In this document: positions 5,040-58,659 of the stretch, piece by piece | Numbering within the stretch: the stretch's first letter is position 1 | Layout of the letters: each line of letters begins with the position of its first letter | Position numbers and translations under genes: made by a program | Notes under the pieces: model-generated | What the model was told of the DNA's origin: nothing | Database searches by the model: none | Seen by the model: the letters and a program-made list of their open reading frames with translations, nothing else | Origin: a virus | Lineage: Duplodnaviria > Heunggongvirae > Uroviricota > Caudoviricetes | DNA length: 64,000 nt | Strand: one strand, 5' to 3' | IMG/VR virus record: IMGVR_UViG_2740892427_000001

Positions 5040-5609
5040 TCAATTAGAGCTTTGAAAGACTTTGTGTGGTTGTGTTGCGAGGTTATGTCGATGGCTTAAC
5101 TCACGCATCATGTCTTCAAGGCGACTCTTTGTGTCGTCGAGTTGGTCGGCCATTGCTCCCAAAAGCTGACGAACGGCCATCGGATCATCGCTGTTTAGTG
5201 ATGGCATTTTATAACCCGCCTGAGAAGACATAAGATTGAACGCAGACATCAACATCGTTAGAGAGGATTTAAGCCCAGCAATTTCACGATCTTTGCTGGC
5301 AATAATCGCCTCACTCTTGTTAGTGTCATCAGTTCGTTGAGTCTCGCTCACCATATCCAAAGTCGCCTGCAACTTATCAGCGCGCTCTTTTTCAGCAAGA
5401 TAATGAACACCGAAATGATGTGCTAAAGCTACAACCTGAGTTGGCTCTTCAAAGGTGGACTCAAAATTAAGTGCTGTAACCACTCTCTCAAATATGGAAA
5501 CGTCTTCTATTCCTCGAAGAATGGCTAACATTTTGACCAGTTCATTAGCATCCATTTCTTCGAATAAGGCGTTTTGTTCATCAGCTATCGCTTTGCATTT
5601 CTTGCACAT
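5040..5609 (-). CDS. hypothetical protein (189 aa)
   Basis: ORF with AGGAAAAACAC-ATG initiation region and AAACAAGTTGTTT palindrome upstream. Confidence 0.6.
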   Translation of the reverse strand: MCKKCKAIADEQNALFEEMDANELVKMLAILRGIEDVSIFERVVTALNFESTFEEPTQVVALAHHFGVHYLAEKERADKLQATLDMVSETQRTDDTNKSEAIIASKDREIAGLKSSLTMLMSAFNLMSSQAGYKMPSLNSDDPMAVRQLLGAMADQLDDTKSRLEDMMRELSHRHNLATQPHKVFQSSN

Positions 5610-5906
5610 GTGTTTTTCCTAATGCTTAAACAAGTTGTTTTCTTATTGGCTTTATTGTGATGTGGCATAAAAGGGGAGCAAGCTAAACGTAAAGGTGCAA
5701 ACTCTCTATTTCGGTCAACGAAACACAAGGGCCATTTGGCCCTTGTCATTAACACGTTGCTTTACGGACTAGCGGATAAGCGAAGTAGATCGCCAAACCA
5801 ATGAGGACGCCATCAGAAATGACAGACATCATCTTTCCCGTAAAATCCACCAACACCGCCATCACCAGAAGAGCAATGACGATCACAAGCCGGAATCTCT
5901 CAAGCA

Positions 5907-6332
5907 TTAGAGATAAGCATCCAGTGACAACTGAAGCGCCTGGGCGATCTTTTTCAGTGCCTGCTCTTCTTGTTCACCAATGCCATCCTGATCGGCAATA
6001 TCAAGGCACAGACACAGAACATCGACCGCCTCTGGAGTACCCGCAATATCAGAAAGCTCACGAATAGCCTGTGCATTAGCAGAACGAGGGGACGCTTCGT
6101 AACGAGCACGGATATTGGCGCTCATTTGGGCAATTTCACCAGCAAACGGAGAAAACGCAGGCAGAGCTGCAATTGTCTTCTCAAGAATGGCAATTTCTTT
6201 TGCGTCACATGTGCCGTCGGCATAGGAGATCATGTACGCGCCCCACACGGTGGCCTCAACCGCATCACGGTTCTCCATTTTTTTGACTTCGATAACTGCT
6301 TTACGAGTTTTCTTTTTGAAGAAACCTAACAT
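5907..6332 (-). CDS. TerB-like protein (tellurite-resistance TerB domain family)
   Basis: duplicated ...ADGxxDxxE... pattern (YADGTCDAKEIAILEK; IADQDGIGEQEEQALKKIAQALQL) typical of TerB. Confidence 0.5.
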   Translation of the reverse strand: MLGFFKKKTRKAVIEVKKMENRDAVEATVWGAYMISYADGTCDAKEIAILEKTIAALPAFSPFAGEIAQMSANIRARYEASPRSANAQAIRELSDIAGTPEAVDVLCLCLDIADQDGIGEQEEQALKKIAQALQLSLDAYL

Positions 6333-6425
6333 GTGTTTTCCTTTTGTTATTTGTCAAAACAAGTTGTTTTATAGTTTCATAAATTGCTTACGCAAAGATG
6401 GTCAATGCATATGCACTAACAGCCG

Positions 6426-6614
6426 TCAGAAATAACCAAGTACCGAACCGACTGGAAAAACAAAAATCCCAACTACACGAGCCAAGGTCATGCCAGCCTG
6501 AAACTGGAGATCGCCAGAGCAAACAAGTTTTATAATGTTCGATACCCAACCGGCGGCCATGAGGGCAAGAATTGCCAGCCAAATTTTTCCAAAGTGATTT
6601 GAAAACCAGTTCAT
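6426..6614 (-). CDS. small hydrophobic membrane protein (62 aa)
   Basis: two predicted TM segments; alternative overlapping frame 6388..6618 looks less protein-like. Confidence 0.4.
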   Translation of the reverse strand: MNWFSNHFGKIWLAILALMAAGWVSNIIKLVCSGDLQFQAGMTLARVVGIFVFPVGSVLGYF

Positions 6615-6623
6615 ACAACCGCC

Positions 6624-7118
6624 TTAGTCACAGCATGATCCTGAGTAACCGGATGAACTTGAGGTATCGCATCCACCGTCATCCCATCCAGAGTGACAGG
6701 ACGCTCTACTGGAGTGGTGGTAATTGTCGTCGACGGAGGTGTGGTGATGGATGAACCCGGCATCAAAAGGCTCTGGCCGGCTGGAACGGCTACCGTCGCC
6801 AGTGAAACTATAATGAGAACGTAGGCCATTGGTTTCAGCCTCTTTCTTTGAAAATTTTCCATTCGAACTGTCCTTGTTGTTTTTCTCCTTCACTAAAGGC
6901 CGTGTACTTTTCGCTTCGCGTGAAGAACCAGAGGCAACAATCGCCCCCACGTTCGCAACAACTGACGCTTGATTATCTAAACGTTCATTCAGCAACCGAA
7001 CGGTAGTCTCTAGTTCATCAAGACGTGACATAACACGACCGCTAAACAATTCGGCCAAAATTTGACGTAAAGAACGAGGACGTTTAGTTGCAGAAGTGAA
7101 ATAGGTTTGACGTGCCAT
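6624..7118 (-). CDS. hypothetical protein; C-terminal half overlaps another frame (6611..6862) that encodes a signal-peptide-bearing Thr/Pro-rich product
   Basis: N-terminal ~80 aa look protein-like, C-terminal part is low complexity; the true gene structure here is unresolved. Confidence 0.3.
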   Translation of the reverse strand: MARQTYFTSATKRPRSLRQILAELFSGRVMSRLDELETTVRLLNERLDNQASVVANVGAIVASGSSREAKSTRPLVKEKNNKDSSNGKFSKKEAETNGLRSHYSFTGDGSRSSRPEPFDAGFIHHHTSVDDNYHHSSRASCHSGWDDGGCDTSSSSGYSGSCCD

Positions 7119-7147
7119 GTGGACTCCATCCAGTGTCAGAAAGAGTT

Positions 7148-56597: not shown

Positions 56598-57275
56598 ATG
56601 AAGGCGAATAAGTCAGCGGCACTTTTAGTTTTATTATTAGCCGGTTGCGCGCAACAAAGTAACCCACAACAAAATGCCACTGTAAAACCAATCCTAACCC
56701 AAGAAATATTGCCTTCCTCTAACGTAGAGTCAAAGGCGAAAATGGGTGACCTTGTCGTTTATAACACGTTTGTGTCCACGTTAAAAACCGACATGGTCAC
56801 TCTTGGTAACGCTTCTGGTTCGATGTCTGAGATTAAAGCGGGCAACTACTGCCACGTTGGTGGTGGGGTCTACCGGAACTTTGAAGACTCAAAAGCTGTG
56901 GGCCTGAAGGCCATTACAGGGCAGGTAGTGAGCCACACTGATAACGTCAAGTATGACAAGGTCAAAAACACTATATCTCCTCCAAACACCACGACGTTCG
57001 ACGCCTCCGAAATATCCATAAAATTCGCACAAAATGTCCCCTGCCATGTAGAGAAAAAGATTGTTCAGTCTATTTCTTATAATGGTAAAAGCGGCGAAGA
57101 ACTTAAATTTATTTATTCCGAAAGCTACCCATATTTAGATGAAACTAAGACTGAGTTTTCAGTGCCTCTTTCCGATGCAAAAACCAAAGTCGAATATAAA
57201 AACCTGGCATTCAAGGTTATTGAAATGGAGGGTACTACAATCCGCTACTATGTATTACCATCTGGCAATAAATAA
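56598..57275 (+). CDS. putative lipoprotein (225 aa)
   Basis: signal peptide with lipobox LLAGC. Confidence 0.6.
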   Translation: MKANKSAALLVLLLAGCAQQSNPQQNATVKPILTQEILPSSNVESKAKMGDLVVYNTFVSTLKTDMVTLGNASGSMSEIKAGNYCHVGGGVYRNFEDSKAVGLKAITGQVVSHTDNVKYDKVKNTISPPNTTTFDASEISIKFAQNVPCHVEKKIVQSISYNGKSGEELKFIYSESYPYLDETKTEFSVPLSDAKTKVEYKNLAFKVIEMEGTTIRYYVLPSGNK

Positions 57276-57290
57276 ACTGCTTTAAAATAT

Positions 57291-57308
57291 AGGCGCCATC
57301 TGGCGCCT
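57291..57308. terminator. stem-loop AGGCGCCatctGGCGCCT (bidirectional)
   Basis: 7-bp GC stem between convergent genes. Confidence 0.6.
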
Positions 57309-57313
57309 TATTC

Positions 57314-57673
57314 TTAACTCTTCTTCATTAACTCGCGTTTAATTTCATCGGTACGCATCGTGACATCGGCAGCTGTGATCGCCTCGTTAAGTTTCACGAT
57401 ATCCTCGATTTCCTGCGGTGATTTCTCTGCCAAATGGAAAATAGCAGCACGAATCACATCAGAGCGGGTGAACTTCTCGAAACGAGGGATGAACTTCATC
57501 ATCTCCAGCAGTTCGAAGTATTCGTCTTCCAGTGACATTGTGCGGCTTTTAATTTTCTCTTTGCCACGAGTCGGGCGTCCCTGTGGTCTGACTGGTTGGC
57601 GCAAAGGAGTTGTGTTCTTAGCCGGTGCATCAGGCTCTTTGCGCTTTGCTAGGTCACCCATTTTCATGGACAT
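57314..57673 (-). CDS. small partition-system partner protein (ParG/ParB-like, possible ribbon-helix-helix)
   Basis: translationally coupled (ATG overlapping the parA stop); basic disordered N-terminus. Confidence 0.45.
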   Translation of the reverse strand: MSMKMGDLAKRKEPDAPAKNTTPLRQPVRPQGRPTRGKEKIKSRTMSLEDEYFELLEMMKFIPRFEKFTRSDVIRAAIFHLAEKSPQEIEDIVKLNEAITAADVTMRTDEIKRELMKKS

Positions 57674-58341
57674 TATTCTTCTTCCTCCAGACTCAACAGA
57701 TAATCTACAAATTCTTCAAACTCGGCTTCCGCCTTTTTGTCGCGCTCGCTACCGGTCATTTCAAAGATAGAACGACCAGACTCTTCCGCATCATCATAGA
57801 CGTTGCGGTTATATAGATTGACTGGCGCAGACTCGATTCCAAACGTCTCAACAATCTCTTTAGCCGCCAGAATGCGAGACACTTGTGATGGCAAAGCCGG
57901 GCACTGGTTCATGACCGCGCGGACCTTCACTTTATCGTTTACATTACGAACATTGTCGATAATAGGATCAATGTCACGCAGAGATTTCAAATCACGACGC
58001 TTAGGACGAAGCGGGATAATGATAACGTCGGCCATCAGCATCGCTTGTCGCTGAATTTCGGAGTCAAAGCCACCAGCATCTACCACTACATACTCAGCTC
58101 TACCCTGAAGCGATTTTAGGTGCTTAATGATGTCATCCTGAACGTATGCAAAAGGAATCAGCTCAAGGTCTTCGTTCTGTCGACGGTCTTCACACCAGCT
58201 TGTTGTCGTGCGCTGAATATCTATATCGGTAATATAAACCTTCTTCTTCTTTTTGACTTTCAGGCAAACGGCAATTTGCTGGGCAACGGTGGATTTGCCA
58301 GGCCCGCCCTTTGTGCCGCCAACCACAAAGATCTTGGTCAT
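57673..58341 (-). CDS. parA: ParA-type partition ATPase (small type Ib-like)
   Basis: deviant Walker A GGTKGGPGKST; 222 aa. Confidence 0.8.
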   Translation of the reverse strand: MTKIFVVGGTKGGPGKSTVAQQIAVCLKVKKKKKVYITDIDIQRTTTSWCEDRRQNEDLELIPFAYVQDDIIKHLKSLQGRAEYVVVDAGGFDSEIQRQAMLMADVIIIPLRPKRRDLKSLRDIDPIIDNVRNVNDKVKVRAVMNQCPALPSQVSRILAAKEIVETFGIESAPVNLYNRNVYDDAEESGRSIFEMTGSERDKKAEAEFEEFVDYLLSLEEEE

Positions 58342-58659
58342 TGGAGAGTTCCCTTTGCGTATATAATTATCGTCTGAAACAACTTGTTTTCTTATATGTG
58401 ATATAGCCTAAATGCCTACGGCTGCGGTGTAAAGGTTAAATGGTAGGTTGTGATTAACAATTGGCAATCATAGCTTGTATTTGTCTGTTGAAAAAAGTAA
58501 CAATGACCTCTATATTACAAGTACGGTGATATGCCGTACACAATTTGATAATGCACACGTAATGGGCTATAGCCTTTTAAAGTAATTTTTGAGTCGAAAA
58601 CTCAGTTTGAACAGAGGAGATTGATGGCCTTCCTACATCACGGCCATCAGGAGGAATAC

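Follow-up and report, generated by a model that had tools for sequence, protein, structure and literature searches.

A palindromic box within a putative promoter-operator cassette, and a shared initiation region, in an SSU5-like phage-plasmid

Results

Palindromic boxes and the genes they precede

The DNA analysed here (the window; 64,000 nucleotides, IMG/VR record IMGVR_UViG_2740892427_000001) shares 97-98% identity with Escherichia phage Cyrano, an SSU5-like phage-plasmid, and its sequence marks it as a stretch of an SSU5-like phage-plasmid in which putative operator boxes are dispersed beside at least eight promoters. On the minus strand, gene-oriented (class I) boxes are found at 5626-5642 (AAGAAAACAACTTGTTTA; centre 5634; weight-matrix (PWM) score 32.0), 25 nt before the ATG at 5609 of the CYRAN_87 homologue; at 6355-6371 (centre 6363; 20.4), 31 nt before the ATG at 6332 of a TerB/TciA-like gene; at 16571-16587 (AAGATAACAACTTGTTTA; centre 16579; 26.7), 38 nt before the nrdB ATG at 16541; at 29322-29338 (centre 29330; 30.1), 23 nt before the ATG at 29307 of a DUF7238 gene; at 55459-55475 (centre 55467; 28.5), 26 nt before the ATG at 55441 of a DnaB-like helicase gene; and at 58375-58391 (centre 58383; 28.2), 42 nt before the ATG at 58341 of parA. 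The last of these genes (57673-58341, minus strand) encodes a small Walker-type ParA of 222 aa and is the first of a par operon that the box would control. A degenerate box on the same strand (TAGTAAATAATTTGTTTT, 44812-44828; centre 44820; 22.1) lies 26 nt before the cobT-like ATG at 44794, whose counterparts at the orthologous positions of SSU5 and Klebsiella have canonical boxes. One box is inverted (class II; 1086-1102, plus strand; centre 1094; 27.5); it overlaps the -35 region of the promoter for the gene whose start is at 1013 and is flanked by a hairpin (1119-1103) and an extended -10 (TGT GAAAAT, 1071-1063).

The palindrome AAACAASTTGTTT, with at most one mismatch, matches the window six times (5628-5640, 6357-6369, 16573-16585, 29324-29336, 55461-55473 and 58377-58389) against 0.18 expected, none of 100 shuffles reaching six, and every copy lies upstream of a minus-strand start, which bears out the six sites recognised in an earlier note made from the letters alone. 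The arms given there (AAACAA and TTGTTT) also stand, whereas the centre, read as S, is N (A at two window sites); the distance to the start, put at 25-40 bp, is 23-42 nt when measured from palindrome centre to ATG. The list of six was, however, incomplete: a weight matrix trained on SSU5 and Klebsiella sites only adds the boxes centred at 1094 and 44820, giving eight in the window against about one in random sequence, and whole relatives (Escherichia, Salmonella, Klebsiella and metagenomes) carry 16-20 per genome.

The palindrome forms the core of an asymmetric 17-mer, AGAAAACAAnTTGTTTA, whose flanks follow a polarity (A at -7 and +7, AG at -9/-8) that a simple symmetric dimer leaves unexplained. 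At orthologous promoters the box sequence is kept and the flanks have diverged, and in six further relatives with proteins just 48-63% identical it is unchanged. Substitutions within the box gather at three central positions, and no compensatory pairs were found among them; the box leaders gave no stable RNA fold (z-scores of -1.8 to +0.6) and matched no Rfam family.

Promoter geometry

Across 35 gene-oriented class I sites from three genomes, a T stands exactly 20 nt upstream of the box centre in every case, as the last base of a -10-like hexamer; positions -21 to -18 are A/T only, a G is present at -27 in 21 of the 35 (the TGn of an extended -10), and C-A is conserved at -14/-13 from the box centre. 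The likely transcription start inferred from this arrangement would place the class I centre at about +14. For class II, 10 of 15 sites place the final T of the -10 at 31 nt downstream from the box centre, and the inverted box would be centred at about -38 in nine or ten. The distance from box to ATG varies from 18 to 47 nt, which ties the box to the promoter and not to the ribosome site.

In the window the same 20-nt spacing predicts minus-strand -10-like hexamers at 5654-5659 (CACAAT), 6383-6388 (AGCAAT), 16599-16604 (CTTGTT), 29350-29355 (CGCAAT), 44840-44845 (CTACAT), 55487-55492 (CTAATT) and 58403-58408 (GGCTAT). Such hexamers are weak (CACAAT, CGCAAT, AGCAAT), and a simple sigma-70 scan of the window cassettes found no promoter. 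Terminator-like hairpins stand 40-100 nt upstream of three window boxes (29363-29382, just upstream of its cassette, and similar ones at 16624-16642 and 5725-5746, all minus strand), implying that transcription restarts at the cassette.

The shared initiation region

Matches to AAAGGAAAAACACATG with up to three mismatches number 11 in the window, all on the minus strand, against 1.06 expected. Of the exact 9-mer AAACACATG the minus (coding) strand has 12 copies and the plus strand none, against an expectation of 1.02; 11 of the 12 copies are at start codons, and an internal copy (51480-51488) heads a 19-codon ORF before the ligase gene. The canonical form, AAAGGAAAAACAC-ATG, belongs to nrdB (16539-16554), and identical 16-mers are found at 23577-23592 (sbcD) and 28824-28839. 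Further minus-strand members lie at 1011-1026 (ending in AAACACATG), 2234-2249, 5607-5622, 6330-6345, 30431-30446, 35165-35180 (gp32-like SSB), 41172-41187 (Pol III alpha) and 54017-54032 (primase or its upstream ORF), with one-base variants at 42588-42603 (start 42590, ACGCATG) and 55439-55454 (start 55441, GCACATG). All 13 starts that the earlier note had grouped together fit, including these two variants and the start at 30433, which has the exact 9-mer and a spacer one base shorter. Its claim of conservation beyond the Shine-Dalgarno core likewise holds, AAACAC-ATG being kept at orthologues whose Shine-Dalgarno sequence has changed; this context is under selection beyond the Shine-Dalgarno sequence, and GGAAAAACAC-ATG would represent a common ribosome-loading site and a selected initiation context.

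Both families are real, with enrichment far beyond chance, and they are linked only partly: the canonical initiation region follows five of the eight window boxes. At orthologues AAACAC is kept more strictly than the Shine-Dalgarno bases themselves, for which plain efficiency is no obvious explanation.

Expression in the lysogen

In lysogen RNA-seq (PMC9928086), box-preceded genes have 5-26 normalised reads against a median of 9.8, except for parA (50), its partner (89) and the next gene (55), so that the parA operon is the sole box-preceded operon expressed. These data are consistent with repression and are not discriminating, because most prophage genes are silent in a lysogen anyway.

Candidate box-binding proteins

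The best candidate for the box-binder is most likely the 119-aa product of the gene directly after parA (57314-57673, minus strand), a putative centromere-binding protein and ParA partner that is predicted to bind the boxes and may have a ribbon-helix-helix fold. A Pfam search with this protein gave no match. It is 91-93% identical across genera, exceeding ParA itself, and its segments SRTMSxEDE, QGRPTRGK and FTRSDVIRAAI stay invariant even where overall identity falls to 48%. The Cyrano annotation labels it a RelE/ParE toxin, a mis-annotation, as it has no toxin domain. Two other regulators fit less well: the XRE-type helix-turn-helix protein adjoining the integrase (CYRAN_45 homologue, 45357-45743, plus strand), because its own leader carries GGTAAGCACTTACC, which belongs to a different palindrome family, the leader of this regulator having a palindrome other than the box in two genera, and an FljA-like protein, because of its tandem Hfq/Sm fold.

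Discussion

A promoter-operator cassette as the probable reading

The transcriptional co-regulation that the earlier note proposed for the palindrome is well supported by the fixed distance to the -10, by conservation throughout the SSU5-like family and by the silence of the operons in the lysogen. Its regulatory role stands, whilst the larger cassette, the polarity of the palindrome and its place downstream of the likely transcription start, and not upstream of the promoter, had been missed. We regard as probable a reading in which the palindrome is the operator core of a promoter-operator cassette bound by an element-encoded repressor, the initiation region being a shared efficient start context; the transcription start, repression through the box and the identity of the binder are what we infer here. 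The cassette of SSU5-like phage-plasmids would extend over some 45 bp, in the order (TGn) -10-like hexamer, 5 nt, CAAYAAG, AAAACAA-n-TTGTTTA. In class I, the start point for the host's sigma-70 RNA polymerase would be the conserved C-A that precedes the box centre by 13 nt, with the box spanning about +5 to +21; in class II the inverted box, centred at about -38, would cover the -35 region. An element-encoded dimer (or dimer-of-dimers) binding at the boxes would block initiation or promoter escape, so that operons for replication, nucleotide metabolism and early genes would be off in the plasmid state, and terminase (outside the window) would be off in the same way. The 17-mer is most likely the landing site of a putative repressor by which phage replication and early genes are silenced in that state. 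The protein encoded after parA would be both the autorepressor of its operon and a global silencer, in the style of KorB (RK2) or omega (pSM19035), and GGAAAAACAC-ATG would be an unstructured A/C-rich initiation region of first cistrons, kept for efficient initiation.

Alternative explanations

One alternative concerns the initiation-region family only: AAAGGAAAAACAC-AUG would be, beyond an efficient ribosome site, the operator of a sequence-specific translational repressor that acts as T4 RegA does on early replication genes. The window and four whole genomes have 9-12 copies of the 9-mer on the coding strand and none on the opposite strand, the 9-mer is kept at nrdB orthologues despite the Shine-Dalgarno change (AAGGAAAAACAC versus GAGGGAAACAC), and the genes concerned (nrdB, Pol III alpha, SSB, helicase, primase, sbcD) parallel those of the RegA regulon; T4 also has related initiation regions at early and replication genes. 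We nevertheless consider this explanation unlikely: A/C-rich unstructured spacers are translation enhancers, and the proteins scanned yielded no RNA-binding regulator of the RegA or any other known family except the FljA-like protein.

That protein would be central to an RNA-level operator, in which the box (+5 to +21 of the leader), the A-rich initiation region or both are bound as single-stranded RNA, blocking ribosome loading and destabilising the mRNA as FljA does on the fliC leader of Salmonella phase variation. The element encodes, outside the window, a full-length FljA-family protein (tandem Sm/Hfq-like; PF03614, E=1e-80), whose gene is a core gene in 831 SSU5-like plasmids and is expressed in the lysogen (log2 7-8), and FljA-type proteins prevent translation of fliC mRNA (PMC2652032). 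Class I boxes are located within 5' leaders, at 5-25 nt ahead of the Shine-Dalgarno sequence, and have a strand polarity; in the Salmonella fliC leader (PMC5056187) a CAAGTTG core precedes the ATG by 20 nt, with a AAGGAAAA Shine-Dalgarno sequence at the same spacing, and the alignment of this leader with one phage leader beats 99% of shuffles. The fliC similarity is, however, weak and absent for the E. coli leader (P=0.47), no box lies near the FljA-like gene itself, and perfect dyad symmetry would be useless in unstructured RNA. Whereas FljA acts on RNA, the box is positioned by the -10 and not by the ATG, and class II boxes are inverted upstream of promoters, where transcripts are not expected to contain the sense strand, all of which makes this account distinctly unlikely.

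Improbable, in our view, is a box with no dedicated binder, serving as an intrinsic element of the initial transcribed region or of promoter strength and spread as a mobile cassette through duplication and recombination, much as are the promoter-early stem-loop cassettes of T4-type phages, which are also repeated before small ORFs. The stretch from -10 to box is indeed conserved as one unit, and cassettes reach their highest density in Cyrano's plastic 93-98 kb region, before small unknown ORFs, and are about 85% alike there. The box is nonetheless invariant where the proteins of relatives are about 50% identical and the rest of the cassette drifts, it recurs inverted at -38 without the remaining cassette, its dyad symmetry about a free central base is the hallmark of a site for a dimeric DNA-binding protein, and, unlike in T4, no stable stem-loop forms. 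Slimmer still is the chance of positive control, in which the box recruits an activator, or loads a Q-like antiterminator onto RNA polymerase paused near the promoter, as a need of weak -10/-35 elements: the weak window hexamers and the scan that returned no canonical promoter do make an activator requirement conceivable, and the terS leader (outside the window) has two boxes followed by a terminator-like hairpin, but a box centred at +14, or lying over the -35 region, has the position of a repressor and not of an activator, the promoters with a box number about 15-20 and belong to all temporal classes, a scan of about 70 proteins detected no Q, MotA/AsiA or sigma family, and cassettes of the early region have a near-consensus extended -10 (TGnGATAAT) that should need no help.

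Comparison with known systems

Dispersed operators are a kind of system already known; the box regulon of SSU5-like elements itself appears undescribed. The operators of P1 C1 are many dispersed copies on a plasmid prophage, at replication, recombination and other lytic promoters that are silent in the lysogen, and the box is likewise multi-copy, scattered over a plasmid prophage and associated with lysogen-silent genes. The P1 operator is, however, an asymmetric 17-mer (ATTGCTCTAATAAATTT) with no dyad symmetry that overlaps the -35/-10 region, whereas the present 17-mer contains a 13-bp palindrome and is mostly found at +14, and no C1 homologue was recognised in the element. The lac O1 operator is, similarly, a dyad-symmetric site just downstream of the start (+11, against about +14 here) with an auxiliary upstream site, and one pair of boxes is 51 bp apart, about five helical turns; the protein family differs, and the present site is reused at many promoters.

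The small ParA with a small partner gene directly after it recalls the type Ib ribbon-helix-helix systems omega (pSM19035) and ParG (TP228), although we know of no member of that family that silences lytic genes of a phage. In the partner, a flexible basic N-terminal tail is followed by a strand-helix-helix pattern, and autoregulation of the par operon would be expected. Partition proteins known to have the ribbon-helix-helix fold usually recognise short repeats in arrays (of 7 or 4 bp for omega and ParG), whereas each box is a single 13-bp palindrome, and the fold of the partner is putative. Omega represses several further promoters too (PMC3074150).

Expression of the element's ParB_N proteins does not exceed background in the lysogen, which differs from KorB of the IncP plasmid RK2, as does a candidate without a ParB or helix-turn-helix domain, KorB being a ParB-family helix-turn-helix protein. 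The KorB operator OB (TTTAGCSGCTAAA) is unrelated in sequence, and most boxes lie downstream of the start. Some copies of OB are, like some boxes, centred just upstream of the -35. KorB is, as the candidate would be, the partner of a partition ATPase and a repressor of its own and many other operons, acting through a 13-bp palindrome with a free central base, present in about a dozen dispersed copies, and the box shares that palindromic length, that free centre and that dispersal over the replicon.

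A conserved palindromic box

An earlier note on this DNA had described two sequence families shared upstream of genes, a palindrome and a region leading into the start codon. The palindrome family, AAACAA-n-TTGTTT, is real: six matches occur in the window against 0.18 expected, and a weight matrix trained on SSU5 and Klebsiella sites only, then run on the window, recovers all six palindromes listed by that note together with two new ones, centred at 1094 and 44820. The window itself shares 97-98% identity with Escherichia phage Cyrano (OV696614), an SSU5-like phage-plasmid of E. 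coli LF82, and ~77% with Salmonella phage SSU5 and with Klebsiella phage-plasmids; its main coding strand is the minus strand, and its genes serve tail fibre, lysis, a par operon, replication, recombination and nucleotide metabolism. Across four complete genomes the box occurs 16-20 times each at orthologous promoters (with at most one mismatch, 18 in Cyrano, 20 in SSU5, and 17 and 16 in two Klebsiella elements), including those of terS, parA, helicase, cobT, a DUF7238 gene, nrdB, a TerB-like gene and many small early ORFs, with diverged sequence around the orthologous boxes.

Comparison of three complete genomes gives A-G-AAAACAA-n-TTGTTT-A as the conserved unit, a 17-mer built on a 13-bp core that is perfectly palindromic around a free centre base (position 0), and whose flanks are asymmetric (A at both -7 and +7, AG at -9/-8), so that the box has polarity. 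Where the box carries a single substitution, this tends to fall at -1, 0 or +1, and no compensating change on the opposite arm was found among the sites compared; this dyad symmetry with tolerated central changes is the pattern of a palindromic operator of a dimeric repressor. A structured cis-regulatory RNA, be it a hairpin or a riboswitch, is rejected by the lack of such compensatory changes, by leader folds of -0.6 to -4.4 kcal/mol (z -1.8 to +0.6) that are no better than shuffles and in most leaders are best without pairing between the two box arms, and by the absence of Rfam matches at any box site. To our knowledge, the box matches none of the known host-factor sites (LexA, CRP, Fur, PurR, IHF and others).

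The box is identical also in six more distant relatives, in which the regulators are only 48-63% identical. Box/regulator co-variation was sought in ten relatives, and the box was invariant in all of them; since it never varies, co-variation with a candidate binder gives nothing. An exact-pattern scan of viral contigs returned mostly single, uninformative matches, and neither the box sequence nor operators of SSU5-like elements were found in the literature searched.

Position of the box at promoters

The sites fall into two classes. In class I, where the box stands in gene orientation, a T lies exactly 20 nt 5' of the box centre in 35 of 35 sites (three genomes), positions -21 to -18 are only A or T, G is frequent at -27, and C-A occupies -14/-13. 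We read these bases as a putative -10 hexamer (…AAT), in many cases with the TGn extension, and a pyrimidine-purine start after it; TGnGATAAT is found in the Cyrano early region. With the T at -20 taken as the end of the -10 element and the start placed at C-A, the class I box would cover approximately +5 to +21, centred at +14. In class II, nine or ten inverted boxes each follow directly after a hairpin, and an extended -10 ends 31 nt 3' of the box centre in 10 of 15 inverted sites, which would centre the box at approximately -38, over the -35 region; the box centred at 1094 is an example in the window. Both classes occur at one promoter in Cyrano (93120 and 93171, centres 51 bp apart). The box thus overlaps the promoter or the inferred start at a fixed position, as an operator would, and the distance from box to ATG varies from 18 to 47 nt, which ties the box to the promoter and not to the ribosome site. 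Terminator-like hairpins 40-100 nt 5' of three window boxes imply that transcription restarts at the cassette of promoter and box.

The main caveat on this promoter reading is that the -10-like hexamers in the window are weak and that a simple sigma-70 scan found no canonical promoter at the window cassettes. A MotA-box-like middle promoter ('GCCTT' near -27) was rejected, neither MotA nor AsiA having been found; GCCTT is instead spacer sequence, since TTGAC stands immediately 5' in several cassettes. Overall, we regard the general reading of the box as an operator as somewhat favoured. On this reading the cassette pinpoints regulated promoters to a single base and provides a genome-wide read-out of a regulon comprising partition, helicase, nrdB, cobT, terminase and many small early genes.

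Two further observations concern individual cassettes. Upstream of the terminase operon (Cyrano 57-135, outside the window) two boxes lie 25 bp apart, and 3' of them stands a GC-rich hairpin with a T-run (AGAGCGC…GCGCTCT GTGTGTTTT), which suggests a terminator in the leader and possible antitermination control of late genes. The annotated starts of CYRAN_58, 105 and 110 (8633, 45805 and 47903 in the numbering of the Cyrano stretch L002) lie inside the promoter or box, or at non-start codons (ATT); the box-plus-RBS geometry suggests that the real starts of such genes may be downstream ATGs, e.g. window 29307 for the CYRAN_58 homologue.

Expression in the lysogen

Expression was taken from published RNA-seq of the LF82 lysogen (supplementary table of PMC9928086). 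Box-preceded genes have 5-26 normalised reads against an element median of 9.8 (PMC9928086), the exception being the par operon, with 50 reads for parA, 89 for the next gene and 55 for the third (PMC9928086). These values fit repression without proving it, because most prophage genes are silent anyway.

By far the top-expressed gene in this lysogen, CYRAN_43 (~7000 normalised reads), is missing from the window through an indel (window 46972-47074 versus Cyrano 40061-40959). Just 5' of the integrase gene, which starts at 46841 on the minus strand, there is a perfect LexA box, TACTGT-N8-ACAGTA (window 46868-46887), and a second precedes the S24-peptidase gene CYRAN_98, outside the window; both agree with the reported SOS induction of Cyrano, which ciprofloxacin is reported to induce 39-fold. 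At window 36971-37389 on the plus strand the cspA thermoregulator RNA (Rfam RF01766) is matched over its full length (187.6 bits), which implies that the phage-plasmid carries a gene for a cold-shock protein together with the leader that regulates it.

The initiation-region family

The second family is real as well: where 1.06 matches to its 16-mer are expected in the window there are 11, each of them on the coding strand, and the exact 9-mer AAACACATG occurs 12 times on the coding strand and never on the opposite one (approximately 1.0 expected), 11 of the 12 copies standing at a start codon and opening ORFs of 66-1168 codons. The same strand bias is present in SSU5 and both Klebsiella elements (9-12 copies versus 0). 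A Shine-Dalgarno element, AAGGA or GAGAA, lies 7-8 nt before the ATG. Starts of the form (A)AAGGAAAAACAC-ATG belong to first cistrons after intergenic gaps, among them nrdB, Pol III alpha, gp32-like SSB, sbcD, helicase, primase and several small genes; the starts of structural genes outside the window lack it. AAACAC is kept at orthologues in which Shine-Dalgarno bases have changed, e.g. nrdB, indicating that it is itself selected, and to this extent the claim that conservation reaches beyond the Shine-Dalgarno core stands. As to the co-regulation that had been suggested on this ground, we read the G/U-poor, unstructured region as a preferred context for highly efficient initiation; an operator for translational control of the RegA kind is less likely, and neither RegA (PF01818) nor another translational regulator was matched in the proteins scanned.

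Strong initiation regions at window 54019 and 51482 (minus strand) head short frames that immediately precede the starts of primase and ligase, the latter a 19-codon ORF and the former, in the window, in frame with primase. SSU5 has separate ORFs here, 23 codons before primase and 12 before ligase, and Klebsiella 22 codons before primase; the arrangement suggests translational coupling or mis-annotated starts.

A second dispersed palindrome

A second palindrome, (A/G)ATA(A/G)GTAA-N0-6-TTAC(C/T)TAT, is dispersed through early and late regions, 13-130 nt before gene starts, with window copies at 56239-56256, 52805-52822, 49287-49300, 30467-30480, 23694-23711, 14298-14311, 9462-9479, 7249-7266 and 2284-2297. 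Among the intergenic 7-mers of Cyrano, ATAAGTA ranks second in enrichment (23 intergenic versus 4 coding). The family is kept in SSU5 and Klebsiella, the spacing of the arms varies, and several copies fold as RNA hairpins (z -3 to -6). The leader of the XRE regulator gene carries a related sequence, GGTAAGnnCTTACC, in both its E. coli and its Klebsiella versions, which points to this (A/G)ATA(A/G)GTAA-type family; the second palindromes may be operators of the XRE regulator, or RNA processing or terminator hairpins.

Candidate regulators

Pfam and PHROG scans of ~75 proteins left only three plausible regulators: an XRE-type protein, a FljA-family protein and the protein encoded directly after parA. 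Two small, winged-helix-looking proteins, CYRAN_37 and CYRAN_123, are at background in the lysogen and therefore poor candidates for a maintenance repressor. The XRE-type HTH protein (CYRAN_45; window 45357-45743), whose gene adjoins that of the integrase and is well expressed in the lysogen, is an unlikely binder, being absent from SSU5, where every box is kept, and having GGTAAGnnCTTACC in its own leader.

The FljA-family 'transcriptional regulator' (Cyrano 100780-101301, outside the window) matches PF03614 (E=1e-80), is present on 831 plasmids and is ~35-40% identical to chromosomal FljA; a sequence search found no solved structure of the family. FljA-type proteins block translation of fliC mRNA (PMC2652032), and for their counterpart in SSU5-like elements a tandem Sm/Hfq-like structure is predicted. 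An RNA-binding-family protein is present, and it is expressed in the lysogen (log2 7-8). Its fold keeps alive a model in which the FljA-family tandem-Sm protein would be the lysogeny regulator of SSU5-like elements (including pHCM2 of S. Typhi and pMT1 of Y. pestis), reading box leaders and/or AAGGAAAAACAC initiation regions as RNA and silencing some 15-25 phage genes post-transcriptionally, with FljA, the repressor of Salmonella phase variation, a domesticated copy and the fliC leader a captured operator. The Salmonella fliC leader has a CAAGTTG core and Shine-Dalgarno spacing in common with the phage leaders, and its agreement with the best of these is better than 99% of shuffles (P ~0.01); the E. 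coli fliC leader has no such match (P=0.47). However, an RNA-binding fold fits a double-stranded palindrome poorly, and the inverted boxes sit 5' of promoters, whereas a FljA-type target is expected in transcribed RNA only; nor was an autoregulatory box found at the FljA-like gene. Taken as a whole, this chain of proposals appears improbable.

We rank the parA partner first among the three candidate binders, albeit tentatively. It is encoded by a 119-aa ORF abutting parA (window 57314-57673, minus strand) and is annotated in Cyrano as a RelE/ParE toxin, yet it has no Pfam match and no toxin domain; it is probably not a toxin and looks like a ParA partner, a putative centromere-binding protein. 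ParA is of the small Walker type (222 aa; matches to AAA_31, MipZ and CbiA), and the small partner gene follows it directly, as in type Ib partition systems. The partner has an N-terminal conserved MGDLAK motif, a basic low-complexity tail and then …KSRTMSLEDEYFELLEMM…FTRSDVIRAAIFHL, and is 91-93% identical across genera, exceeding ParA; its putative strand, basic arm and second helix stay unchanged even where overall identity drops to 48%. These features fit a putative ribbon-helix-helix centromere-binding protein of a type Ib system. In every relative the box lies 42 nt 5' of parA as a single palindrome and not an array, and the par operon is the only box-controlled operon that is on in the lysogen, as expected of an autoregulated global repressor.

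The cassette thus narrows the regulator to three candidates, with the ParA partner an unexpected front-runner; were it the binder, plasmid partition would be tied to prophage silencing. Clinical Enterobacteriaceae commonly harbour SSU5-like phage-plasmids: >800 sequenced plasmids have the marker genes used here, and some of these elements carry resistance genes according to published reports.

Comparison with known systems

The three systems closest in logic are C1 of P1, KorB of RK2 and omega of pSM19035. P1 C1 likewise acts at dispersed operators, but its operator, ATTGCTCTAATAAATTT, is unrelated in sequence to the box, and the Pfam and PHROG scans of ~75 proteins revealed no C1-like repressor. 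The OB sites of KorB are 13-bp palindromes served by a partition-protein partner as global repressor, a similar logic to that proposed here; KorB is, however, an HTH protein of the ParB family, and a counterpart here would be expressed while the element is a plasmid, whereas the parA partner lacks a ParB domain and the ParB_N proteins CYRAN_119 and 120 are at background in the lysogen (5-10 reads). Membership in the C1 and KorB classes therefore fails on sequence or on protein family, and the parA partner is a putative member of the ribbon-helix-helix partition family. The box set is genuine and extends across the SSU5-like family; as a probable promoter-operator regulon with a putative binder it belongs to a known kind, and it seems undescribed.
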